A stretch of 64,000 nucleotides of DNA, taken from the sequence record NC_023693.1. The stretch is one strand, 5' to 3'. The DNA is from Escherichia phage phi92. Both the position numbers and the translations under genes were made by a program. The notes beneath the pieces are model-generated. The model worked only from the letters and a program-made list of their open reading frames with translations, was not told the DNA's origin and ran no database searches. Positions 9,610-52,910 of this stretch are shown here, one piece after another. The number at the start of each line of letters is the position of its first letter. Positions within the stretch are counted from its first letter, which is position 1.

Positions 9610-10245
9610 ATGGGAATACCATTTGATTTAAAACTTGATGGTTCTAACGATTTAGTAATGGTGGATGGTGATTTAACACTAACCACAACTAAAAGTGAAA
9701 TTGCAGCACAGACGCTTGGAATAACACTTAGAACTTTCCGTGGAGAATGGTTCCTCAACTCTAATTTTGGGGTTCCATATCTGCAAGAGATTATTGGTGT
9801 TGCCAAGAAGAAAGAGATTGTTGATCGCATTTTCTTATCAACTATCGCAAGTAATGTTTATATAGATAATATTAATTCCTACACATCCTCTTATGATAGA
9901 GATGATAGGTATTACTCAATGAACGTTACTGTTACAGTTGGTGAACAAGTTGTTAGTGCTCTATTCAGTACACAGCCGTCTGAAGAATATATCTATCCAG
10001 AAGCTGGTGACGATAATGCAGCAATCACTTGTGAAGCATTTGAAATTGTTGAATCTGCAAACAGACTCTATCGCTTTATTAACATTGTTGGTCTTCCTAG
10101 AGATACTTATTCTACTTGGTGGAATGAGTGGTCTAACGAGGCATTGATTGAAAAATACCTTGTTAACGAAGCCAATAAAGGTCTTGCAACCAATTACAAC
10201 TATGCTATAACAGCAACAATGGGAGCTACAAATAATAATGGCTGA
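9610..10245 (+). CDS. baseplate wedge protein (gp25/GPW-like)
   Basis: N-terminal pattern KSEIAAQTLGITLRTFRGEWFLNSNFGVPYLQE resembles the GPW/gp25 family; position after the spike gene. Confidence 0.45.
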   Translation: MGIPFDLKLDGSNDLVMVDGDLTLTTTKSEIAAQTLGITLRTFRGEWFLNSNFGVPYLQEIIGVAKKKEIVDRIFLSTIASNVYIDNINSYTSSYDRDDRYYSMNVTVTVGEQVVSALFSTQPSEEYIYPEAGDDNAAITCEAFEIVESANRLYRFINIVGLPRDTYSTWWNEWSNEALIEKYLVNEANKGLATNYNYAITATMGATNNNG

Positions 10246-10711
10246 TTTAACTACAATCAAGGTGTCTGATCTACCTGTAACAACATCTGTTTCAGACACA
10301 GATTATTTTGTAACAGATCAATCAGGCATCACTAAGAAAACATCATTACGTGTTCTTCTTGCGGGTGCTGGTGTTACACGAAATCGTCTTTCTGCAAGGG
10401 GTACTGTCACAAATACCCTAGCTTTAGATATTAGCACGGCAGAGTATTTCTCTGCCACTTTATCTAGTCCAACTTGCAGTATTTCATTTAGTAATGTTCC
10501 AGTTACAACTAACATTGTTCAAAACTTTACACTATCCCTACGTCAAGGCAGTGGAGCAAATAAAGTAACGTGGCCTCAATCTGTTAAATGGAGTTTTGGT
10601 CGCGCTCCTGTTTTGAGTTATAAACAGGGAGCTACAGATATTTTTGAATTTGTTAGTTATGATAATGGAGCTACCTGGATAGGTAGTTTAGTGATGGCAG
10701 GAGTGATTTAA
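10238..10711 (+). CDS. hypothetical baseplate protein
   Basis: 157 aa ORF with start overlapping the upstream stop. Confidence 0.4.
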   Translation: MADLTTIKVSDLPVTTSVSDTDYFVTDQSGITKKTSLRVLLAGAGVTRNRLSARGTVTNTLALDISTAEYFSATLSSPTCSISFSNVPVTTNIVQNFTLSLRQGSGANKVTWPQSVKWSFGRAPVLSYKQGATDIFEFVSYDNGATWIGSLVMAGVI

Positions 10712-42124: not shown

Positions 42125-42634
42125 TTAGCGATAGAATTGATGTTCTTTGTAGCGGTACACTAGAACCATATCTTTTTCCCAGTGTGCTCTTATTGTAGAT
42201 TTTTTAAAGTATAATGCTCCTTTTGTAATATCTAATGCAATTCGTAATTCTGGAAAATGCGTATCGAGATAAAGTAGACGTTCTGCTATAGCCTTAGCTT
42301 CCTTCCACTTATCACGTTCCATAACGTTGAATGTCTTTGTGTAAGAGAATTGTCCTTTTTGAAACAAAACTTCTTTTATAGTATCAGGGAAATATGAATC
42401 TCTAGCCCTATTCAATACTACATTACCAACAGCAGACATACCGCGCTTTCCTTGATTACGACTTTCTGCATAGATTGCACAAGCTAATAGATTTTCTTTA
42501 CTATCACGCTTTGTACACTTGTGAACTACTTTAGCAGTTTTTACGTTTGCAGCTTCGGCTTGCGCCACAACAGGTGTAAATGTAAAAGCAGTTAAGGATA
42601 GTAACGCAATTGCGACAAAGGTTTTTATTGACAA
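42125..42634 (-). CDS. secreted cell wall hydrolase, SleB/Hydrolase_2-like
   Basis: N-terminal signal peptide (MSIKTFVAIALLSLTAFTFTPVVAQA) and LLACAIYAESRNQGKRGMSAVGNVVLNRA, which matches the SleB-type hydrolase motif. Confidence 0.55.
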   Translation of the reverse strand: MSIKTFVAIALLSLTAFTFTPVVAQAEAANVKTAKVVHKCTKRDSKENLLACAIYAESRNQGKRGMSAVGNVVLNRARDSYFPDTIKEVLFQKGQFSYTKTFNVMERDKWKEAKAIAERLLYLDTHFPELRIALDITKGALYFKKSTIRAHWEKDMVLVYRYKEHQFYR

Positions 42635-43348: not shown

Positions 43349-43372
43349 TAAAATATGCGCCCCGAAGGGCGC
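43349..43372 (-). terminator. intrinsic terminator downstream of terD
   Basis: GCGCCC-ttcg-GGGCGC followed on the - strand by ATATTTT. Confidence 0.5.
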
Positions 43373-43381
43373 TATGATTTA

Positions 43382-43978
43382 TTACTCGAACCAATCGTCG
43401 CCAGCGCCAAACGCTTTAACTACATCGTAAATATCAAGCCCAGCTTTACCCACACCATACGCTTTCAGTTTCCATTCGCTATCTTCTCGCACCAGGGAGG
43501 CAACGTGGCAAATGGTGTTACCTGCAAGTTCTGGAGCCAAGAAGTCAAAGTCCAGCAGTTCAACATTACGTTCATCATCGAAGATTTTAAGGAAACCTTC
43601 GGTAGCGTGACCAAGGCGTTTCTTACCCGTTTCGTCATCAATAGTAATTACGAATGCAATTTCCTGTGCTTCAGCAGAGATATTATCCAGTGTAACATCA
43701 ATCTGCTCCATTTGTCCTACACCGTCACGAACATCTTCACCTGCAAAAGTAGAACGTTCAGGATCAAATTTCTGTGCGTAGCATACCAGGTGGCGAGGAG
43801 ACAACAGTTCCGGCAGACCAGATGCATTGTGTCGGCAAATCAGAGCACTAACATCCAGATCCAGTTTTTCGTTAGATTTCCAAGAGAATTCCAGACGAAT
43901 GCGTTTCAGTGCTGGTGCGATCTTTTTCAGGGAAACTTTTTCGCTAGAACCTTTTTTCAGGGAAATTTTCTGAGTCAT
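43382..43978 (-). CDS. terD: TerD-family stress protein
   Basis: N-terminal ISLKKG...VSLKK, DLDVSA, FVITIDD and EWKLKAYG blocks match the TerD domain as I recall it; AAGGAG RBS. Confidence 0.6.
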   Translation of the reverse strand: MTQKISLKKGSSEKVSLKKIAPALKRIRLEFSWKSNEKLDLDVSALICRHNASGLPELLSPRHLVCYAQKFDPERSTFAGEDVRDGVGQMEQIDVTLDNISAEAQEIAFVITIDDETGKKRLGHATEGFLKIFDDERNVELLDFDFLAPELAGNTICHVASLVREDSEWKLKAYGVGKAGLDIYDVVKAFGAGDDWFE

Positions 43979-44015
43979 AATTTATTATCTCCTTTGTTGT
44001 TAATTTACGTTGTCT

Positions 44016-44043
44016 ATTTTACTAATCTTTTCTACAAAGTCAA
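44016..44043 (-). promoter_or_regulatory. sigma70-like promoter (-35 TTGACT, 16 nt spacer, -10 TAAAAT)
   Basis: On the - strand upstream of terD; TTGACT is the complement of 44038-44043 and TAAAAT of 44016-44021. Confidence 0.5.
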
Positions 44044-44050
44044 GCGTTTT

Positions 44051-44845
44051 TTACGCTTTTGCTCCGAATTTTTTAACCCACTCACCAAACTCTTCGGATA
44101 ACAGTTTATCGTAAAGTTCTTCGTCAGACAAGGACAAATCTGCAATACCGATAAAATCAACATTATCGTATTCTTTTGCCAAGTCTTTCAGGAATTTAAA
44201 GTTTGCATTACCTACACCAACCATAAACCAGTAAACAGGAGTGTTGCGGTGTTTGTTCAGCAAACTACGTACTGCTGAAGTATCCATGTTCTCCCCGTCA
44301 GTTTGGAAGAAAATCATTGCAGGAGTACGATCAACTTGTGCATCAGTATCTACAACCTGTTCTACAACAGTACGTGTAACTTCTACACGTTCTTTTTTAC
44401 CAGTTAGTTTAGCAAGGAAACCCTTAGCCGGAACTTCTTCATACTCAACGACTTCGCGTGTAATATTTTTCATAGGTACACTACCGAAGTATGTATCATA
44501 GATCTCTTGCATTACTGGGGCATAAGCTGTACCACCATTGATGCAAACATTAGACATACAAGAGCCGACATAATCATCATATACATCAGCCGTTGCGGGA
44601 GGCAGTTCAAAAGAAGAACTATTGAAAGCCCACATGTCAATCTGTGCATTATCATCAAATTTCATACCAAACGGCAGCAGCTTACCTACAAAATCACTAA
44701 CAGTGCCATCACGATACAGCTCACACATACTACCCGAAATATCTAAGGCGCTACCGACACGAAGAACAACATCGTTAATCTTTTTCTTACGCAGAGATAC
44801 GGTAAGAGTTTCTTGACGTTTTTTAAGACTGATTTTATTGGACAT
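44051..44845 (-). CDS. von Willebrand factor A domain protein (TerY-like)
   Basis: MIDAS motif DISGSM, downstream GGT and FQTDGE; TerD-like N-terminal ISLKK...VSLRK segment. Confidence 0.55.
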   Translation of the reverse strand: MSNKISLKKRQETLTVSLRKKKINDVVLRVGSALDISGSMCELYRDGTVSDFVGKLLPFGMKFDDNAQIDMWAFNSSSFELPPATADVYDDYVGSCMSNVCINGGTAYAPVMQEIYDTYFGSVPMKNITREVVEYEEVPAKGFLAKLTGKKERVEVTRTVVEQVVDTDAQVDRTPAMIFFQTDGENMDTSAVRSLLNKHRNTPVYWFMVGVGNANFKFLKDLAKEYDNVDFIGIADLSLSDEELYDKLLSEEFGEWVKKFGAKA

Positions 44846-44846
44846 A

Positions 44847-45116
44847 TTATTTCTCCTTTCTGAGTGTAATGTTAGTAACTTCTAAATCCACTTCTACCAT
44901 TTCTGTATCATATGAAATACAGCTAAGTTGACCTCTTTGTGAACCGTTCAGACACATTGCTTGGTTTGTATTAACCTTAATAAACACTAAGTTTCTGAAC
45001 GTATCTAAACCAGCATCTTGATAGGCAACATAATATACAAATGTATCACCTGCGTCAAGTTCTCCAAAACATTTAGGTTCATCTGATTCGTCGTCTTTGA
45101 TATTAAATTTAAGCAC
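44847..45116 (-). CDS. hypothetical protein
   Basis: 89 aa ORF. Confidence 0.4.
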   Translation of the reverse strand: MLKFNIKDDESDEPKCFGELDAGDTFVYYVAYQDAGLDTFRNLVFIKVNTNQAMCLNGSQRGQLSCISYDTEMVEVDLEVTNITLRKEK

Positions 45117-45672
45117 TATCTTCTCCTTTACCTACTTTCAAGCCTAAATAGAAAGCCTCTCTAGTGATTTTTTGCAACTCGTTTAAAGAGATAGTTACAA
45201 CTAAATCATCTTCAATTTCTAGTTTTGAGTCTTCTTCTGTCTCAATGCAAGTATTATGCACTTTGTGGTAAGGATTGTCAACACGTTTAAATTTATTATT
45301 TTCAGTGCTGAAGAAGCAATCTGGATCTTCTTCCCCATCACCCCAACCCTGGTTAGGATCTTCTTCAGATCTTTCTGTTGGGATCTCACCTGTAAAGTGT
45401 TCTTCTAATACCAGAGCAATCCCATCTCCAAGATCGGAAGAGAACATCAAATTACAAACTTCTTCCCAAGGCATAGACCACTTAAATCTTTTACGATTGC
45501 CATGTTTATCTTCTTCGTTAGAGAAAACACTACCATAGCTATCATAATTCCCATACATCTCTTCGACAACCTTACCACCTTTCAAAAGAAATAGGTAGCA
45601 AGGAGAGCCATCGAAAGAGGTAGAGAGAGCAGCATTACCAGACTCTTTGCACAAGAAACTAAAACACCCCAT
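45109..45672 (-). CDS. hypothetical protein
   Basis: 187 aa acidic ORF. Confidence 0.4.
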   Translation of the reverse strand: MGCFSFLCKESGNAALSTSFDGSPCYLFLLKGGKVVEEMYGNYDSYGSVFSNEEDKHGNRKRFKWSMPWEEVCNLMFSSDLGDGIALVLEEHFTGEIPTERSEEDPNQGWGDGEEDPDCFFSTENNKFKRVDNPYHKVHNTCIETEEDSKLEIEDDLVVTISLNELQKITREAFYLGLKVGKGEDSA

Positions 45673-45872
45673 TATACACCAGCCTTAAGATCAATTAAAG
45701 CCAAAGTTGTTTCAGAGTGTGTTTGCTCGTCTACAGGCGCAGTCATATGATAATACAAAAAATCTTCGGCATCATACCAATCTGATTCTTGACCTTGTTT
45801 CCAACCATCAATGAAAGCATCTTCCATAATGGTTTGCAATTCTTCACGAGTTAAGTGAATATCTTTACTCAT
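45672..45872 (-). CDS. hypothetical protein
   Basis: 66 aa ORF with start/stop coupled to neighbours. Confidence 0.35.
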   Translation of the reverse strand: MSKDIHLTREELQTIMEDAFIDGWKQGQESDWYDAEDFLYYHMTAPVDEQTHSETTLALIDLKAGV

Positions 45873-46105
45873 TACACATTCTCCTCTTTTACCAATTCCA
45901 TCGTTGAATTGTCAAAACCATCTTTAGAAGAATAGGTATAGACAGAACGTAGTTCTCGCAGGACAGTGAATACATTAGGATCATCTAACCAAGCATCCTG
46001 GAGGAGAACATAACGATCTTCATTGTCATACTGAACAGCAATCATAGAACCAGACAGTTTGTAAATTTTAATATTCATAATATATTTCTCCTTAAAGTAG
46101 ACCAC
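45872..46105 (-). CDS. hypothetical protein
   Basis: 77 aa ORF. Confidence 0.35.
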   Translation of the reverse strand: MVYFKEKYIMNIKIYKLSGSMIAVQYDNEDRYVLLQDAWLDDPNVFTVLRELRSVYTYSSKDGFDNSTMELVKEENV

Positions 46106-47195
46106 GTTTAACAGTTTGAATCATACCATCTTCAAGAGATTGCACTTCTTGAATGTAATCAATACGGGCAGCACGGGCTTCAGTGTTGATTCGGTTAGTT
46201 TCTTCCAACATTTTAACTAAGTTTTCTTGATCACGACGTAATGTTTCAATATCCAATACTTGACGATTAGCAAGTTGTGTAGCTTCAATTTGGTTTTGTG
46301 CAGCCAGATCACTACCCATTGCAATAGCAGCATTAAATTCATTCAGTACATTGTTCTGTGTATCGGCTGCTTTCTTCTGGCGTAGACTTTCAATATACAT
46401 AGAAAAGTTTGCAGAGTAAGCAGGGATAACATTATTCACAATATTACGGGCTGATCGCATCAAACTTGCAGATACTTTCTGCATACTTTGTACACGTGGC
46501 CCCATCTGAACACACAGTAAGCGTAAGGCTTTCAGGTCTGCAATACGAATTTCAAGCAGATCCATAGTATCACGAGTACGCTGACGCTCTTCTACGTCAT
46601 TTTCAGGCAGTGTATTAAGGCGAATTTCTTCTTTTTCATAAGTAGCTGTTAGAAGCTCTATATCTCTGTTTAAGCTAAGAGCATATTTTGCAATAGCCTC
46701 TTCTAAACGTTGCAGATATCGTAAAGAATCTTCTTCTTTTTTCAAGTCTGTTTGGAGTGTCTTTACCAAACCTTCAATACGGTTATTAATGGTGTCAAAT
46801 TCTCCAAACAAATCTTCTTTCATACCTAAAACTTTTTTAACTAGTTTACCTAAACCTTTAGATTGTTTAATAGAGTTAGGATCAAGTTGCTTTGCTTGCT
46901 TAATAAGTGCAGTTAAACGTTCACTCATTTCATCTCCCTGAGATGAACGCTGGTGTTTAAGCACTTCAGCATTAAGGTTACGAAGAGTAAGTCCTGCATC
47001 AGCACCAACCTGTTCAATCTCTTCACGCGACATTGGAGGCAGCATTTGTACAGGTCGTGCAACAGCAGGGGCATATACAGGGCTTGCATCCATAGCACTT
47101 GGAGCAAACAAAGACTTACTTTTTTCTGTTGTTGCCGTGAATACACTCATTTCAGACGGTTTGCTTTTTACGGCACTGATAAAAGGACTGGACAT
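46092..47195 (-). CDS. telA: TelA-like (toxic anion resistance) protein
   Basis: 367 aa, highly alpha-helical; C-terminal VLDIETLRRDQENLVKMLEETNRINTEARAARI resembles the conserved TelA/YceH C-terminal block; GGAGGA RBS. Confidence 0.5.
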   Translation of the reverse strand: MSSPFISAVKSKPSEMSVFTATTEKSKSLFAPSAMDASPVYAPAVARPVQMLPPMSREEIEQVGADAGLTLRNLNAEVLKHQRSSQGDEMSERLTALIKQAKQLDPNSIKQSKGLGKLVKKVLGMKEDLFGEFDTINNRIEGLVKTLQTDLKKEEDSLRYLQRLEEAIAKYALSLNRDIELLTATYEKEEIRLNTLPENDVEERQRTRDTMDLLEIRIADLKALRLLCVQMGPRVQSMQKVSASLMRSARNIVNNVIPAYSANFSMYIESLRQKKAADTQNNVLNEFNAAIAMGSDLAAQNQIEATQLANRQVLDIETLRRDQENLVKMLEETNRINTEARAARIDYIQEVQSLEDGMIQTVKRGLL

Positions 47196-47263
47196 TCAAT
47201 TTCCTCCATATTCTTTAGTAAATGGTGATACCTCTGTACCACCATCATAACACAAATTAAGTA

Positions 47264-48133
47264 TTAAACAAACATATCTAAATAATTTGTAGTAATAAAT
47301 GCTCCATCTGCTTCCAGATTAACATAACCAGTAGCATTAGTGGTTAAGAAATCCAGATCGAAGGACTCTTTAACACCCCGTACCTCAACACGAGAGATAT
47401 CGAATACAGGTAGTGTAACAGCCTCTTCGTGCAATACCGTACCTTTGTAGGTTGCCTTAATGATAAACTTGATATTACCTGTTCCAGCATCATATAAAAC
47501 ACTTTCAAACCCTTTGAGAGTATATTTATCACCAGAGGTGAAGTGCAAAGTTGCTTTGTTTACAGTACGGTTCTTACGAGGAGTTCCTTTCACACGTTTA
47601 TGATCACTACGTCTTTTGCATTTAGGAATGAATACAAACGATACACTCTCAAGAAAGGTATCAACATCAAGGATTTTAATATCCTCTGTTGCAGCAAATT
47701 TTGAAGTAGTTGCATCAAAATGCTTTTCCCTGCGATCATACATAAAGATATCAAACCGATCTTCTAAATCAAACCGATCTTCTAAATCAAACAAATTATG
47801 CAGTTTAATTTCAGAATGCTTGCACATTGCAGCAACCTTAAACTCTTCAAAACGTGGGTGTTCTACAAGTTCTTCAAGTTTTACACCAAAGACAGTATAT
47901 TGTTTCGAAGTTTTTTCTGGTGTTGGCATTACAGAAGCATAATCACCGATTGCGCTCTTAAAGCAAAATTGTTCTTGACCTGTATTTTTACCAACGAATT
48001 TACAGTATTCGTCATCGTGCATACTTTCCTGGGTAGTACCAACAAACTCAAAACCATCTTTATTCTTCTCAAGGATTTCTTGATTAAAGATCCAACCTTC
48101 CAGGCGATATACTTTACCAACTTCTAGTTTCAT
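47264..48133 (-). CDS. hypothetical protein (contains an 18 bp tandem duplication)
   Basis: 289 aa; internal DLEDRFDLEDRF encoded by the tandem repeat at 47751-47786. Confidence 0.4.
   Translation of the reverse strand: MKLEVGKVYRLEGWIFNQEILEKNKDGFEFVGTTQESMHDDEYCKFVGKNTGQEQFCFKSAIGDYASVMPTPEKTSKQYTVFGVKLEELVEHPRFEEFKVAAMCKHSEIKLHNLFDLEDRFDLEDRFDIFMYDRREKHFDATTSKFAATEDIKILDVDTFLESVSFVFIPKCKRRSDHKRVKGTPRKNRTVNKATLHFTSGDKYTLKGFESVLYDAGTGNIKFIIKATYKGTVLHEEAVTLPVFDISRVEVRGVKESFDLDFLTTNATGYVNLEADGAFITTNYLDMFV
47751..47786. repeat. perfect 18 bp tandem duplication (TCAAACCGATCTTCTAAA x2, plus a partial third copy)
   Basis: Positions 47751-47768 and 47769-47786 are identical; in frame within the CDS. 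Confidence 0.8.
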
Positions 48134-48168
48134 CTGTTTCTCCTTCTTATTTAATCTGTATTAAATTA

Positions 48169-48774
48169 TTAACGACGACGTGAGCTACTAAAACTACGTT
48201 TCGACGAAGAATAACTTTTCGAAGACTTACTATAAGAGCTAATAGGGCTTGAGTAAGACTTACGAGCAGAGTAATCACTATTCACTTTCGTTGTTGATGG
48301 GCGTGAATACGTTTGTACACTTTGCTGCTTAATTGTGTTTTGTTTAGTGGTTGTATATGTATTTCCTTGTTTATCATAAAAACTATGCTTTTGTGTTGTA
48401 TATGCTTTACTGTTAGTTGTAGGAGCAGCGTTGTTATTAATAATTGTTGTGTTGCTACCACCATCTCTATAACCGCCACCGCCACTATTACCACTCAACA
48501 TATGACCAAGAAGCATACCTGTAGCAAACTCACCTACACCAGAAGAACCACTGCCGCCTCCTTGCACAACAACTGTTGAAGGTTGTGCAGGTGCTGCTTG
48601 AACAACTTGAGGTGCAGGCTGATTTACATATTGTTCATCTACCATCTGATTTGGTGTTTGTTGGTAACGTTGATTTTGTACATTTTCAGAATCATCACAA
48701 CCTACCAGCAATGCACTACCTAAAACAACTGCAACAATAAAAGATTTAATGTTTTTCATTTGTAACCCTCTCAT
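48169..48774 (-). CDS. putative lipoprotein with low-complexity Ser/Tyr-rich C-terminus
   Basis: Signal peptide with lipobox-like LLVGC; Gly-rich stretch; C-terminal SYSSPISSYSKSSKSYSSSKRSFSSSRRR. Confidence 0.45.
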   Translation of the reverse strand: MRGLQMKNIKSFIVAVVLGSALLVGCDDSENVQNQRYQQTPNQMVDEQYVNQPAPQVVQAAPAQPSTVVVQGGGSGSSGVGEFATGMLLGHMLSGNSGGGGYRDGGSNTTIINNNAAPTTNSKAYTTQKHSFYDKQGNTYTTTKQNTIKQQSVQTYSRPSTTKVNSDYSARKSYSSPISSYSKSSKSYSSSKRSFSSSRRR

Positions 48775-48952
48775 TTAAAGTCTCAACACAATTTTTAAAA
48801 TCCCTAGAGAAACAATACATCTGTTCTCCGTTCCTGTTGATAGTAATTGTATGGTTATCAATATATGTTGTCAAGATAAAAATCAAACAAAACAACCCTA
48901 GAGCAAAACAAATATTTTCAAACAGAATCCAAAGAACACGTAAAACCACCAT
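48746..48952 (-). CDS. small membrane protein
   Basis: 68 aa with an N-terminal hydrophobic helix. Confidence 0.35.
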   Translation of the reverse strand: MVVLRVLWILFENICFALGLFCLIFILTTYIDNHTITINRNGEQMYCFSRDFKNCVETLNERVTNEKH

Positions 48953-48967
48953 CAGATCACCTCAACA

Positions 48968-48985
48968 AAGCCCCCGAAGGGGCTT
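48968..48985 (-). terminator. GC hairpin, possible terminator downstream of terC
   Basis: AAGCCCC-cgaa-GGGGCTT, weak T-tract. Confidence 0.4.
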
Positions 48986-48991
48986 AATGAA

Positions 48992-49969
48992 TTAAGCAAC
49001 AGTCTGGTCTTCTTTTTCAGGGAAGATTAAACTTGCAACAACACCCAACCCAAGAGTACCTAACACAATATACATACTGATCGTCGGATCAATGTGTGCT
49101 GGCAGGAAACTGGCTTTTGCGTGCAGAGTTTCTGCAAACGGGTGATACATCAGTTTTACACCCACAAACACCAGGACTACGATAACTGCTTTCTCCAGAT
49201 GAACCAAATATTTCAGTGCAACACTAAGGACAAAGAACAGAGCACGTAGACCTAAGATTGCACAGAGCATCGAAGAGAACACTAGCAGAGGTTCTTGTGT
49301 CACTGCAATCACTGCTGGAACAGAGTCTACTGCAAAGATTACGTCAACCATTTCCATTACAAACACACAAACCAGAGCCGGAGTTGCTACACGAACACCA
49401 TTTTTGATTGTGAAGAACTTCTCACCATCCATCTGATCAGATACAGGGAACAGCTTACGAACAATGCGAGTAGCCCAGTGTTTAGAGTAATCAACTTCTG
49501 CATCATTATCTCCAGCGAATACCATTTTAGCCGCACAGAAAAGGATGACAGCACCGAAGAAGATATTAACATACCAGCCCAAACTCAACAAGTAAGTACC
49601 TACTGCTACAAACACACCTCGGAAGACAATCGCACCTGCAATACCCCAAAGTAGAATCTTGTGCTGCAAGTGTGTGCTTTTAATACCAAAACTTGCGAAT
49701 ACTGCTACAAATACTACTAAGTTATCTACAGAAAGAGATTTCTCCAACACATACCCACTCAAGAACAAGCTCGCAAAATCAGCACCGTGTTGGAAGTATA
49801 CAAAACCATAGTAGGCTAATGATACCCCAATCCAGAAAATTGACCAGCCAATTGCAGATTTAAATGAAATTTCTTTGTTTTCTCTGTGTCCAAAGAAATC
49901 AATACAAATCGACAAGACTAAAATACCCACTAAAACAACCACATCAATAATTGGGAAACCCAGTTGCAT
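48992..49969 (-). CDS. terC: TerC-family integral membrane protein
   Basis: Multiple TM helices and the characteristic EKSLSVDNL segment. Confidence 0.6.
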   Translation of the reverse strand: MQLGFPIIDVVVLVGILVLSICIDFFGHRENKEISFKSAIGWSIFWIGVSLAYYGFVYFQHGADFASLFLSGYVLEKSLSVDNLVVFVAVFASFGIKSTHLQHKILLWGIAGAIVFRGVFVAVGTYLLSLGWYVNIFFGAVILFCAAKMVFAGDNDAEVDYSKHWATRIVRKLFPVSDQMDGEKFFTIKNGVRVATPALVCVFVMEMVDVIFAVDSVPAVIAVTQEPLLVFSSMLCAILGLRALFFVLSVALKYLVHLEKAVIVVLVFVGVKLMYHPFAETLHAKASFLPAHIDPTISMYIVLGTLGLGVVASLIFPEKEDQTVA

Positions 49970-50046
49970 TCTTTTCTCCTCTTTAATGCGGAGGACAATC
50001 CTCCGCTCTATGTCGTATACTATAAACTGTTTTTAAAGAAAGTCAA

Positions 50047-50295
50047 CTAGTTCAGTTCTGTAATTTTAAGTTTATCTTCTTTGTTAATGATAGGGAAAGC
50101 TACAGCATCACCTACATCATCAATAAAGCAAATAGCAAGACCACCTTCCACTTTGCTAACCTGACCATTAAAGGCGTGATACGGGGCAGGAACAATATCT
50201 CCATCTTCAAGGAGAATAGCCTCATAAACCTTACCAATAGTACAATCACGAGTGTTTTTAAATTTTTCAAGCACTTCAACATTTACTTTACGCAT
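50047..50295 (-). CDS. hypothetical protein
   Basis: 82 aa ORF. Confidence 0.4.
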   Translation of the reverse strand: MRKVNVEVLEKFKNTRDCTIGKVYEAILLEDGDIVPAPYHAFNGQVSKVEGGLAICFIDDVGDAVAFPIINKEDKLKITELN

Positions 50296-50309
50296 ATAAA
50301 GATCCTCTC

Positions 50310-50516
50310 TTATTTGTTAGATTGAAAGATACCACGAAGTACCGCAAGAATGAACGTCACACAGACTACACTCCAAAACGTTACAGGAACATGATGCCAG
50401 TCTAAACCGATAATGTCAATCATATAGTTGTATGCTAAAAGCAGTAGCCAACTAGGGATTAACACAATCAAGAACACAACAATAAAACAACCTAATACTG
50501 CTAAAACACCTGCCAT
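50310..50516 (-). CDS. small membrane protein
   Basis: 68 aa, two hydrophobic helices. Confidence 0.4.
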   Translation of the reverse strand: MAGVLAVLGCFIVVFLIVLIPSWLLLLAYNYMIDIIGLDWHHVPVTFWSVVCVTFILAVLRGIFQSNK

Positions 50517-50525
50517 ACTTTCTCC

Positions 50526-51242
50526 TTATTTCAGTTTGTAAACAATTACATTTAAACCTTTGTTCACTAGAGTTTCTTCGATCATAAGTTTTACAATATT
50601 CCAAGAACCTCCAGCCAAACCACAACCAAGCATTGGTAAACCTACAATTTTACCGCCTGAAGATACAACATCGTCTCCCATACTATCTAACGCATTGTAG
50701 ATAGCTTCATAATTCAGGTCACGCTTACCTTCCTCACGACGACTATAACCATATTGTCCATATAAATTATAAATTGTCAAATTGTTTTCTGTATACTTAG
50801 TAAACGTACCTAATTTTTTATAATCACCACGTTTAGTGGCACAATCTGCTTTAAACGCACCAGGCCACTTGCTTTTAATTTTTGGTGCAATACCACTACC
50901 CATAGTGCAAAAACAGTTACAGCAGTGTGCTATAGCGTCTATATCGCCTCTCTCGGCTGCTGCTAAAAGATCACCGTATACCTCAATGATACCTGCTGGA
51001 TAACTTGTTACAATTTCATCTTCCCAGTACATTTGCTCTACACCACCGATCAGTGCAAAGTTTTGTGTAATGCGATCATCAATATAATTAAGACCTGAAA
51101 CATACACAGCATATTCATCCTGTGCTGTAATACCTTGTACACGAATTCTTAAGACACCATCTTTATCTGTTGCTACACGCCCAAAATCTTTTTCTGTAAT
51201 ATTGGTGATAGGATCTCCGAAAGTCGTCACTTTATTAGACAT
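50526..51242 (-). CDS. macro domain protein (ADP-ribose binding/processing)
   Basis: IDAIAHCCNCFCTMGSGIA and LGCGLAGG resemble macro-domain Gly-rich loops; start taken at the internal ATG (MSNKV...) that overlaps the upstream stop (ATGTCTAA); the ORF track extends to 51359. Confidence 0.45.
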   Translation of the reverse strand: MSNKVTTFGDPITNITEKDFGRVATDKDGVLRIRVQGITAQDEYAVYVSGLNYIDDRITQNFALIGGVEQMYWEDEIVTSYPAGIIEVYGDLLAAAERGDIDAIAHCCNCFCTMGSGIAPKIKSKWPGAFKADCATKRGDYKKLGTFTKYTENNLTIYNLYGQYGYSRREEGKRDLNYEAIYNALDSMGDDVVSSGGKIVGLPMLGCGLAGGSWNIVKLMIEETLVNKGLNVIVYKLK

Positions 51243-52092
51243 AATAATCCCCTTTAACATTAGATTTGTTGATAATGTTGCTTTCAAAAAATTGACGCAG
51301 GAAATCAAAGTTCTCTTTGTATTTTTCAATATTATTGTAACCTTCTGCAAGGCAACCAAAGAACAGTTGTTCTACATAATACAAAGGAAGTTGTGAAAGT
51401 GCAATTTTAAAATCAACTTCGCTTTGACTCATTAGATACTTAATAGGACGAACCAAACATTTAGCATCAGTTTCTTGCTTAATCATTTTAATAAAAGCTG
51501 CCAGGTTATTGATATAGTTGAAGTTAAGTGCAGCTTCGGTGTTGGCTTCTGTACCTTCATACTTTGCAAAGTACAGGAAAAACGTATCGTTTTCAACACC
51601 TTCTTTGTCTAAAATTTCAATAAGTTTTTCTTCGTGTGTACCTGTAATATTAACATCATCAATGAAAATCAGATTTTTATCGCCCCAAAAATCACGATTG
51701 ATAGAGAAAGTATCACCATCGATCAAAGCCTTACGATCTTCTTTGCTAAGAAATCCATAATCATTGATATAGCTCACTTTACGATGAACGATATCCCACT
51801 CTACTGCTTTACCTCCTTTGATAGAGATTAGGTAGTTGAGGTGATCTACAAAATGTTCAGATAACACTGTAGCTGCATTTTTAACATAGTTATATGGAGA
51901 TGGAATAACAACAAAACTTTCATTTACCAGTCGTTCTTCATATTTAGAAAAGAAACTTTCAGCCAGAATGCGTCCCATTCTTTTTGCTGCCTGGTTGCTG
52001 CCAAACTTTAGTTTGGAATAATCTGCAATGTTAAATTTTGCTTCCTTCAGGTTAGTAAAAGTATTAGCAAAATGTTGAATTTGATTACGCAT
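51235..52092 (-). CDS. phosphoribosyltransferase (type I PRTase fold)
   Basis: NLIFIDDVNITGTHEEKL matches the PRPP-binding motif (hydrophobic strand, DD, then TG-T). Confidence 0.5.
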   Translation of the reverse strand: MRNQIQHFANTFTNLKEAKFNIADYSKLKFGSNQAAKRMGRILAESFFSKYEERLVNESFVVIPSPYNYVKNAATVLSEHFVDHLNYLISIKGGKAVEWDIVHRKVSYINDYGFLSKEDRKALIDGDTFSINRDFWGDKNLIFIDDVNITGTHEEKLIEILDKEGVENDTFFLYFAKYEGTEANTEAALNFNYINNLAAFIKMIKQETDAKCLVRPIKYLMSQSEVDFKIALSQLPLYYVEQLFFGCLAEGYNNIEKYKENFDFLRQFFESNIINKSNVKGDYYV

Positions 52093-52741
52093 TAATAAGT
52101 TCCTCTTTTTTAAGTTTAGCCAACAAGTCTTCTGGATTAATAATATGACAGAACTTCATCCCTATGTCAACAGCTTTTCCATCATAAATCAAACTATCTC
52201 CAACGTGTAAAATCTCCTCTGGTGCGAGATCAAACGTTACCATTTCATCAAAAGAGAGTTTAAAAAACCTAGGATCTGGTTTACACAAGCAAAACTCATC
52301 AGAAAAATGCATAAAGTCAAATGGTAATTTTGTCAAGCCAGAATATACAGCTAAGAAACTACCAGGTACAAAATTAGTATTGCTCTTAATACTCAAAGAG
52401 TAGGTTGAACTTAGCTCTTCCAACTTCTTGCAAAGTTCAGGATTCAAGGTTGGAGGATGTTTTATAAACATTGCTAAACAGTCTCTTTTTAACCCATCCA
52501 CTTTATCAAGATCAATGTTCAAACGAGTAGAAAGTGTTACCCAAGCATCCTTAGACGTTCCACAAATGCCTTTTTCTGCTTTTAAATCCAAGAGAGTTTT
52601 TACCTCTTTATATACGGTAGCTGCTTCTACCTCAGAACAAGAGGCATACTCGGCAATAACCTTGTTGCGCTCTTCTGCATACAAAGGGTTAGCAGTAATA
52701 AGAGTATTCCATACATCAAAAGAAATATGCTTAACAGTCAT
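52085..52741 (-). CDS. HAD-superfamily hydrolase
   Basis: N-terminal HISFDVWNTL (motif I-like) and C-terminal HVGDSLIYDGKA (motif IV-like); start taken at ATG 52741 with GGAGGA RBS (the ORF track starts at TTG 52759). Confidence 0.45.
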   Translation of the reverse strand: MTVKHISFDVWNTLITANPLYAEERNKVIAEYASCSEVEAATVYKEVKTLLDLKAEKGICGTSKDAWVTLSTRLNIDLDKVDGLKRDCLAMFIKHPPTLNPELCKKLEELSSTYSLSIKSNTNFVPGSFLAVYSGLTKLPFDFMHFSDEFCLCKPDPRFFKLSFDEMVTFDLAPEEILHVGDSLIYDGKAVDIGMKFCHIINPEDLLAKLKKEELINA

Positions 52742-52910
52742 TTTTAATCCTCCGTCCAAAAGAATATCATCTGCTTAATTTTATTGATTTCTTGATGTAG
52801 TAACTTTCCAGCATGTGATTGATCTTTAATATTGACAGCAAGAATTTCAAGTTCCGTTAGTTTTTCTTGGATAGCTTTATATTCATCATCTGTAAGCATT
52901 TTCTTCCCCT

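Follow-up and report, generated by a model that had tools for sequence, protein, structure and literature searches.

A predicted lipoprotein among the Ter-type genes of Escherichia phage phi92 and the C-terminal module that it shares with DUF1190 proteins

Several phage lipoproteins are folded proteins with defined targets: Llp and Cor are directed at FhuA, Ltp at the tape-measure protein. The bacterial lipoproteins SlyB/Pcp, YfgH and OsmB are stress-related envelope proteins. E. coli also possesses the DUF1190 lipoproteins YgiB and YjfM, which are encoded beside tolC and in an operon containing a PspA paralog, respectively, and in both cases next to peptide-spermidine ligases. YgiB is a predicted lipoprotein that AlphaFold models with low confidence; its function and the substrate of the peptide-spermidine ligases YgiC and YjfC are unknown (PMC11762307). 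YgiB-like proteins are frequent in large lytic phages (PMC4319498). In the stretch of 64,000 nucleotides of Escherichia phage phi92 analysed here (sequence record NC_023693.1; hereafter the window), gene gp180 occupies positions 48169..48759 of the minus strand (196 amino acids plus stop) and lies among Ter-type genes. Its product is tentatively explained, with a confidence that falls somewhat short of even, as an inner-membrane lipoprotein that would condition the envelope of the infected cell, be expressed from its own promoter and not be an obligatory subunit of the Ter system. A hypothetical protein was already on record for this gene; the present analysis adds a definition of the family, a predicted topology and a link to the C-terminal module of DUF1190 proteins.

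The gene is the ortholog of Phi92_gp180 and belongs to phrog_21570. Its region in the window is ~98% identical to the genomes of Justusliebigvirus (phi92-like E. coli myoviruses, Stephanstirmvirinae), and in every relative inspected the ortholog is labelled 'hypothetical protein'. An earlier examination of the window, made from its letters without database searches (hereafter the sequence-only reading), had taken the full minus-strand open reading frame (ORF) at 48169..48774, which gives 201 amino acids from the upstream ATG. This ATG (48772-48774) overlaps a Shine-Dalgarno sequence, GAGAGGG (48766..48772, minus strand), located 6 nucleotides 5′ of the ATG at 48757-48759, which is M6 of the longer ORF. 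Because of this ribosome-binding site, and because the match to phrog_21570, the gp180 annotation in phages Paula and phi92 and all homologs begin with the methionine at 48759 or its equivalent, the downstream ATG is likely the true start and is preferred to the one at 48774. The mature protein is identical whichever start is used. The reading frame and motifs are retained in 29 relatives, down to ~40% identity, and close relatives of the gene differ by 6-10 synonymous and 1-2 non-synonymous codons. Since the frame is conserved across lineages at 40-50% identity and synonymous changes outnumber the others, gp180 does not appear to be a chance ORF; sequence comparison indicates that the gene is real and under purifying selection. 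No DNA tandem repeat was found within it, so that its low-complexity tail is compositional and does not result from recent repeat expansion.

Scans of gp180 with Pfam, NCBIfam and PADLOC gave nothing above threshold, neither gp180 nor its neighbour gp181 matches a PADLOC model of anti-phage defence, and no study of gp180 or of its family was found in the literature. Matches to DUF2076, YjbE and Lpp/entericidin were discarded as the product of low complexity or of the signal peptide alone.

The N-terminus of gp180, MKNIKSFIVAVVLGSALLVGC, has the three parts of a lipoprotein signal. The signal peptide covers residues 1-20 (48700..48759, minus strand) and consists of the n-region MKNIK, with its charges at K2 and K5, and the h-region SFIVAVVLGSALL; it runs into the lipobox L-V-G-C (48697-48708, minus strand), whose cysteine, Cys21 (48697-48699), is followed by Asp+2 and Asp+3. 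This arrangement passes a PROSITE PS51257-type rule and conforms to the lipobox definition used here: a positive n-region, a hydrophobic h-region and [LVI][ASTVI][GAS]C with the cysteine at position 15-35. The PS51257-type rule is loose on its own, being passed by 11 of the 1366 start/ORF combinations in the window, and under a stricter scan gp180 is the sole convincing lipoprotein ORF. Within the family, the rule is passed by 146 of 170 members and the cysteine is kept in 170 of 171 aligned members (99%). In an AlphaFold2 (AF2) model, the signal peptide forms a helix at residues 4-19 with a predicted local distance difference test score (pLDDT) of 85-88. These features make it very probable that gp180 is a lipoprotein, as the sequence-only reading had proposed from the LLVGC lipobox, and they uphold its proposal of an association with the envelope.

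The same reading had placed the protein on the cell surface, and here the residues behind the cysteine point elsewhere. In E. coli, aspartate at position +2 is the classical signal for Lol avoidance and retention in the inner membrane, and a +3 residue of the kind Asp, Glu, Asn or Gln reinforces it. The residues from the lipidated cysteine of gp180 onwards are C-D-D-S, and Asp+2 is shared by the window protein and every relative of the close clade (29/29); among all retrieved relatives with a lipobox, it is present in 73 of 153. Because Asp follows the lipidated cysteine, gp180 is probably held in the inner membrane and not exposed at the surface, although with much less certainty than its being a lipoprotein.

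The mature chain has 175 residues, 60% of which are Q, N, S, Y, G or T. It begins with an acidic linker rich in Gln, Pro and Val (residues 22-66; 48562..48696, minus strand), predicted to be disordered, with a net charge of -4 and a conserved P-x-V-(I/V)-V-Q end. The Gly-rich segment that follows (residues 67-103; 48451..48561, minus strand) holds the most conserved element of the family, SGVGEFATGMLLGHMLSG, which can be generalised as SGVG(D/E)FATGM(I/L)LGHM(M/L)SGG. Next come a conserved TTIINNN motif (48430..48450, minus strand; TVVNKT-type in distant members), possibly a β-strand, and a basic disordered tail of 84 residues rich in Thr, Ser, Tyr, Lys and Arg (residues 113-196; 48172..48423, minus strand), whose C-terminus SSSRRR is conserved across the family. 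The extreme S/Y/K/R part of this tail (48172-48309, minus strand), that is the last 46 residues, contains 43% Ser, 13% Arg, 11% Tyr and 11% Lys, with a net charge of +10 and a Shannon entropy of 2.72 bits, while residues 69-112 contain 30% Gly. Residue counts thus bear out the Gly-rich segment and the extreme C-terminus seen by the sequence-only reading.

Structure prediction gives a chain with little order. With 29 sequences, AF2 reached a pLDDT of 45 and no structure; with 143 sequences, the pLDDT was 55.5 and the helices were the signal peptide and residues 75-89 alone (48493-48537, minus strand; pLDDT about 64-77). According to these models, gp180 is essentially disordered apart from this one short helix. 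The helix carries a conserved glycine-zipper motif, GxxxGxxx[GST], formed by G81, G85 and S89; G81 is kept in 97% and G85 in 96% of the family, and 87% of members have S, G or A at position 89. None of the Pfam glycine-zipper hidden Markov models (HMMs) (Gly-zipper_Omp, Gly-zipper_YMGG and Rick_17kDa_Anti) matches gp180, even at E <= 10. With a mean Eisenberg hydrophobicity of 0.49 and a moment of 0.05, the helix is uniformly hydrophobic. A charge asymmetry seen throughout the family, with a linker of mean charge -3 and a tail of mean charge +11 in 98% of members, had prompted the idea of a transmembrane helix followed by a cytoplasmic tail. This topology was rejected: the hydrophobic run is 11-15 residues long and, on the scale of Hessa et al. 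2005, the insertion free energy summed over 19 residues is +9.1 kcal/mol for the best window of the mature protein, no window among 146 relatives falling below +2.9 kcal/mol on the same scale. Helix 75-89 has neither the length nor the apolar character needed to cross a membrane, and the whole mature chain is therefore predicted to lie in the periplasm, tethered to the inner membrane.

The family extends well beyond phi92-like phages. A profile search of 1.84 billion representative proteins retrieved 250 relatives at E <= 1e-3, distributed over phrog_21570, phrog_32479 and phrog_13808, all of unknown function. Those that were read are 100-230 amino acids long and have a single layout, in which a lipoprotein signal is followed by an acidic Q/P-rich linker, a Gly core, a TVVNKT-like motif and a basic Ser-rich tail; at least two of the last three residues are Arg or Lys in 158 of 178 members. 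No Pfam domain was found in these relatives, and a profile search of PDB sequences matched the lipoprotein signal peptide only. Every inspected context of a member with this stand-alone layout is a phage-like contig, and when 185,579 bacterial and archaeal genomes were scanned with two narrow motifs, just two contigs came up, both phage-derived. One metagenomic relative, P0087 (352 amino acids), is built differently: a signal peptide, a TPR domain and a true transmembrane helix precede the family core, and the tail is His-rich and strongly acidic (Ser/Asp) instead of basic, a topology at odds with the rest of the family. Another member, of 169 amino acids, has CDD after the lipobox, ends in YRRR and is encoded at 10010-10519 of a high-GC IMG/VR contig of 41.9 kb (L023). 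Its gene lies 3′ of recombination, SSB and XRE-type regulator genes and just before a convergent tailspike-like gene of 775 amino acids, which is a typical 'moron' position and looks like that of a different, possibly temperate, phage type.

A relationship with DUF1190 proteins emerged from two longer matches of the family search. P0102 and P0167 are bona fide DUF1190 proteins (PF06693 E-values of 3e-24 and 1e-21), in which a Cys-rich DUF1190 domain is followed by a core of the gp180 type (TTIINNTT...GSGDFLTGMLLGNMMSGGG) and then by a Ser-rich tail. BLASTP aligns gp180 with P0102 at an E-value of 1e-8, and hhalign aligns the profile of the close clade with P0102 over 33 columns with 97% probability and an E-value of 9e-11. 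The core motif is present in most of the 53 DUF1190 relatives of P0102, named Pseudomonas proteins included, where the protein ends in ...FGG and not in RRR, and the gp180 family HMM scores 25-43 bits on many DUF1190 proteins. DUF1190 lipoproteins include E. coli YgiB and YjfM, Pseudomonas-type YjfM-like proteins and the YgiB-like proteins of large virulent phages (Moon, Merlin, Vequintavirinae and jumbo Erwinia phages); a YgiB-like gene occurs in 145 phage records. Full membership of gp180 in DUF1190 was considered and rejected: the Pfam scan gives no PF06693 match in gp180, E. coli YgiB without its signal peptide scores just 12 bits against the gp180 family model, and a profile comparison with five YgiB-like sequences aligns the signal peptide alone. 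The last two results reduce the relation to a shared module, so that, at the level of sequence, gp180 and the Pseudomonas-type DUF1190 proteins have a C-terminal module in common while gp180 is not itself a DUF1190 protein.

The genes of P0102 and P0167 are bacterial and chromosomal, and in the two contexts inspected both stand in an operon DUF2170-PspA_IM30-DUF2491-DUF350-DUF1190-GSP_synth, which corresponds to E. coli yjfIJKLMC; these are PspA-family envelope-stress operons. Pseudomonas-type DUF1190 proteins (L029 6001-6906, L030 1313-2158 and P0179-P0229) display a core GDFLTGMLxGNMMSGG...RYY and an invariant-looking ...FGG end. That this Gly-Gly end is the substrate of the adjoining peptide-spermidine ligase is pure speculation.

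Expression of gp180 may be controlled separately from that of its upstream neighbours. A predicted sigma70-like promoter, TTGACA-17-TACAAT (48846..48874, minus strand), is located within the gp181 ORF, 86 nucleotides upstream of the gp180 ATG; it matches the consensus at 11 of 12 positions and is among the two best in 10.5 kb. TTGAC and TAnnnT are kept at the equivalent site in three divergent lineages whose gp181 proteins are just 44-56% identical, which suggests an internal promoter for gp180. Further upstream, in the gap that runs from the end of TerC to the start of gp181, a cUUCGg stem-loop (48968..48985, minus strand; -15 kcal/mol, z -1.9) sets gp181 and gp180 apart from TerC; on weak evidence, it may be a transcript boundary or stabiliser. 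A second GC-rich stem-loop of the UUCG/GAAG tetraloop type, flagged as a bidirectional terminator, follows TerD at 43357-43372, and both structures may be usual transcript boundaries or RNA stabilisers of this phage.

Taken as a pathway, the preferred explanation would start with early expression from this host-type promoter. The precursor would be exported by Sec, lipidated on Cys21, cleaved by signal peptidase II and kept by Asp+2 on the periplasmic face of the inner membrane. There, the glycine-zipper helix 75-89 would likely self-associate at or in the membrane leaflet, and the polycationic tail would likely bind anionic envelope components; in phi92-like phages, gp180 would probably work with the small membrane protein gp181. 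What such a protein would achieve is more doubtful: that it conditions the envelope by superinfection exclusion or by buffering membrane stress is a possibility to which we attach a rather low probability. This guess is in line with a published proposal in which the Ter genes of phages are directed against superinfecting phages (PMC7824862). A bolder conjecture, of much smaller probability, is that gp180 is a stand-alone C-terminal module captured by the phage from host YjfM/YgiB lipoproteins, in which a hard-wired RRR end would substitute for a possible ligase modification at the Gly-Gly terminus. Such a mimic, acting at the inner membrane with gp181 and perhaps with TerC and TelA, might hijack or pre-empt a PspA-like stress pathway or exclude superinfecting phages.

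Several observations weigh against the explanation that we prefer. Asp+2 is not universal, since the sister genus Phapecoctavirus has Glu+2 and other members have Ser, Gly or Asn, so membrane sorting may differ between family members or may not matter. Promoter-like matches in the region are not in excess (37 found versus 31 expected), and since the promoter is inside a coding region, part of its conservation could come from codon constraint. The DUF1190 link rests on the 33-column glycine-rich core and was seen solely via intermediate Pseudomonas-type sequences, the five YgiB-like sequences whose alignment stopped at the signal peptide being enterobacterial and phage proteins. Finally, the synteny with TerC and TelA extends to lineages at 40-50% identity, and Yersinia phage P778, in which a distant gp180 homolog occurs, has TerC and TerD at another place of its genome; these two points leave room for a functional tie to Ter.

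Such a tie is at the heart of the strongest rival explanation, in which gp180 would be a periplasmic accessory subunit of the Ter system that docks with gp181 on TerC and, via the membrane, on TelA and the vWA/TerD proteins, so as to tune or anchor the complex. An almost complete Ter-type module occupies 43382-52759 of the minus strand (TerD, vWA-TerF-like, TelA, TerC, Macro domain, ComF-like PRTase_3 and HAD hydrolase), and its contents form a membrane part and a predicted nucleoside-derivative synthesis part, as described for bacterial Ter systems. The genes closest to gp180 are likewise on the minus strand: upstream of gp180 is TerC (48992..49969; Alx-type, TIGR03718, 324 bits), and two genes downstream is TelA (46092..47195). 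The placement of gp180 between TelA-like and TerC genes by the sequence-only reading is confirmed, with gp179 (47264-48133, between gp180 and TelA) and gp181 (48746..48952) also in between. The latter is a predicted single-pass membrane protein of 68 amino acids, N-in/C-out, which overlaps the start of gp180 by 14 nucleotides; it has one N-terminal transmembrane helix, two conserved cysteines in its C-terminal 40 residues and a weak, sub-threshold match to DUF6693.

In Stephanstirmvirinae-like phages, gp181 is always directly upstream of gp180, overlapping or abutting it, and the order TerC-(inserts)-gp181-gp180-gp179-(SprT)-TelA is found in Justusliebigvirus, Phapecoctavirus and three metagenomic lineages at 40-50% identity. 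The order TerC-gp181-gp180-gp179-TelA occurs in all Stephanstirmvirinae-like lineages examined, down to 40% identity, which speaks for a Ter subunit, as do the presence of TerC in all three isolate groups with a homolog detected by tblastn and, in P778, of TerC with two TerD proteins. However, this order is limited to those lineages, and insertions of methylase, SprT and other ORFs interrupt the adjacency. In P778, the homolog lies between nrdD and nrdG, 59 kb away from TerC and TerD; in three contigs, a gp180 relative lies between ribonucleotide reductase and ThyX genes; and in contig L002, the gene has become separated from gp181 as well as from TerC. Beside distant family members gp181 is absent, and no Ter gene occurs within 7-10 kb of the relatives in L008, L009, L014, L015 and L023; the co-location of TerC, TelA and TerD that marks Stephanstirmvirinae-like phages is absent from these loci and from that of L011. 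In addition, gp180 is preceded by a promoter-like site of its own and TerC is followed by a hairpin, while the scan of bacterial and archaeal genomes, made with narrow patterns, found no homolog in a bacterial ter operon. A Ter accessory subunit is thus considered unlikely. For the claim of the sequence-only reading that gp180 is a component of the Ter system, this means that the synteny in Stephanstirmvirinae-like phages stands, and that the functional part becomes doubtful in view of distant members without nearby Ter genes. From these neighbourhoods it is concluded that gp180 would be a mobile envelope module settled beside Ter genes in one phage lineage, and probably not a dedicated or obligatory subunit of the system.

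A second rival, which follows the sequence-only reading, is less probable still. Here gp180 would reside in the outer membrane or at the surface and, like T5 Llp or Cor, mask a receptor. Phage lipoproteins of this type are well known (T5 Llp), the Glu+2 of Phapecoctavirus and the Ser or Gly of many distant members would permit Lol transport, and two family members weakly match a Cor PHROG. This improbable reading is countered by Asp+2 and Asp+3 in all 29 close relatives, by the lack in gp180 of a folded domain able to bind a receptor and by the absence of any similarity to Llp or Cor beyond the signal peptide.

Very improbable is a role in lysis, with gp180 as an o-spanin- or u-spanin-like protein, gp181 being the i-spanin, or as a regulator of the nearby putative holin or SleB-like hydrolase. 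A small type-II membrane protein and a lipoprotein encoded by overlapping genes do recall the Rz/Rz1 architecture, and 1.5 kb upstream lies an ORF with two transmembrane segments that the annotation of phage BME3 calls a holin. A few family members also weakly match PHROGs of Rz-like spanins, but signal-peptide similarity explains these matches. An o-spanin must reach the outer membrane, against which Asp+2 argues, and gp181 has about 38 predicted periplasmic residues and no coiled coil. A u-spanin of the T1 gp11 type is not supported either, as the tail of gp180 has no C-terminal transmembrane segment, given the +9.1 kcal/mol of its best mature window. Other phages point the same way: the authors of the BME3 study locate the spanin pair elsewhere (PMC12210895), and P778 has a separate annotated o-spanin adjoining its endolysin. 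Moreover, gp180 is among early/middle-type genes and has a predicted host-type promoter. The weakest rival, a drifting low-complexity ORF without function, has a negligible probability, for although gp180 has no fold and no annotated domain, Cys21, P50, P57, G81, G85, P113 and the RRR terminus are conserved over ~250 relatives, synonymous changes outnumber non-synonymous ones, and translational coupling and the ribosome-binding site are preserved.

Other features of the region deserve mention. The putative holin of BME3 corresponds in the window to an ORF of 68 amino acids with two hydrophobic segments (50310-50516, minus strand), situated among early/middle-type genes and far from the structural lysozyme. 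The SleB-like cell-wall hydrolase (42125-42634, minus strand; ortholog of Phi92 gp170) has an apparent cleavable Sec signal peptide, MSIKTFVAIALLSLTAFTFTPVVAQA, and may thus be exported independently of a holin. Within gp179, a perfect 18-bp tandem repeat of 2.4 copies (47750-47792, minus strand) encodes a duplication of DLEDRF; compared with phage Paula, the gene in the window has 18 additional nucleotides, suggestive of a recent expansion of the repeat in frame. Five records of 'Campylobacter phage' (A150, A145, C3, A110a and B15; MG065639, MG065645, MG065656, MG065689 and MG065650) are about 98-99% identical in this region to E. coli Justusliebigvirus/Phapecoctavirus, and their Campylobacter host label looks doubtful.

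On its own, gp180 is one more hypothetical phage protein. Its wider meaning comes from the definition of a sizeable unannotated family of ~250 cluster representatives and three PHROGs with a clear common architecture, tied to the equally obscure DUF1190 proteins YgiB and YjfM. Given this tie, a simple phage-side phenotype, be it exclusion, envelope-stress signalling or dependence on tellurite/Ter, could open a first way into the function of both families and help to show whether envelope lipoproteins cooperate with the Ter gene sets of large lytic phages.

Set against known systems, gp180 has partial counterparts of several kinds. Like T5 Llp, Cor and TP-J34 Ltp, it is a predicted phage-encoded lipoprotein of the type made in the infected or lysogenic cell to alter the envelope, and Ltp, from a Gram-positive phage, is tethered to the cytoplasmic membrane at its outer face, the location predicted for gp180 likewise. 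Unlike these proteins, gp180 has no predicted folded domain, and no sequence similarity to any solved structure was found. With the Rz/Rz1 spanins, it shares a gene arrangement in which the lipoprotein gene and the 3′ end of a gene for a small membrane protein of N-in/C-out topology overlap; the gp180/gp181 pair differs by the Asp+2 sorting signal, a reversed size relationship, the lack of an intermolecular cysteine and a region that is not late. The glycine-zipper lipoproteins SlyB/Pcp, YfgH and OsmB resemble gp180 in having both a lipobox and a conserved GxxxGxxx(G/S) helix that is presumed to function in or at the membrane. They are outer-membrane proteins with a two-helix hairpin, several GxxxG turns and sometimes a folded domain, whereas gp180 has one predicted 15-residue helix between long disordered stretches, carries Asp+2 and matches none of the Pfam Gly-zipper families. 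The closest likeness is with the DUF1190 lipoproteins, which also combine an N-terminal lipoprotein-type signal with low-confidence or disordered models. In both, a stretch rich in Gln, Ala and Pro precedes the Gly-rich hydrophobic core (GEFATGMLLGHMLSG in gp180, GDFLTGMLLGNMMSGGG in the Pseudomonas-type proteins), and a Ser-rich tail follows it. The differences are found at the two ends of the chain and around the gene: gp180 is devoid of the Cys-rich N-terminal DUF1190 domain, it terminates in SSSRRR instead of the invariant ...RGGFG...FGG, and the GSP_synth-type peptide-spermidine ligase gene that adjoins the DUF1190 genes inspected has no equivalent in the neighbourhood of gp180 in the window.

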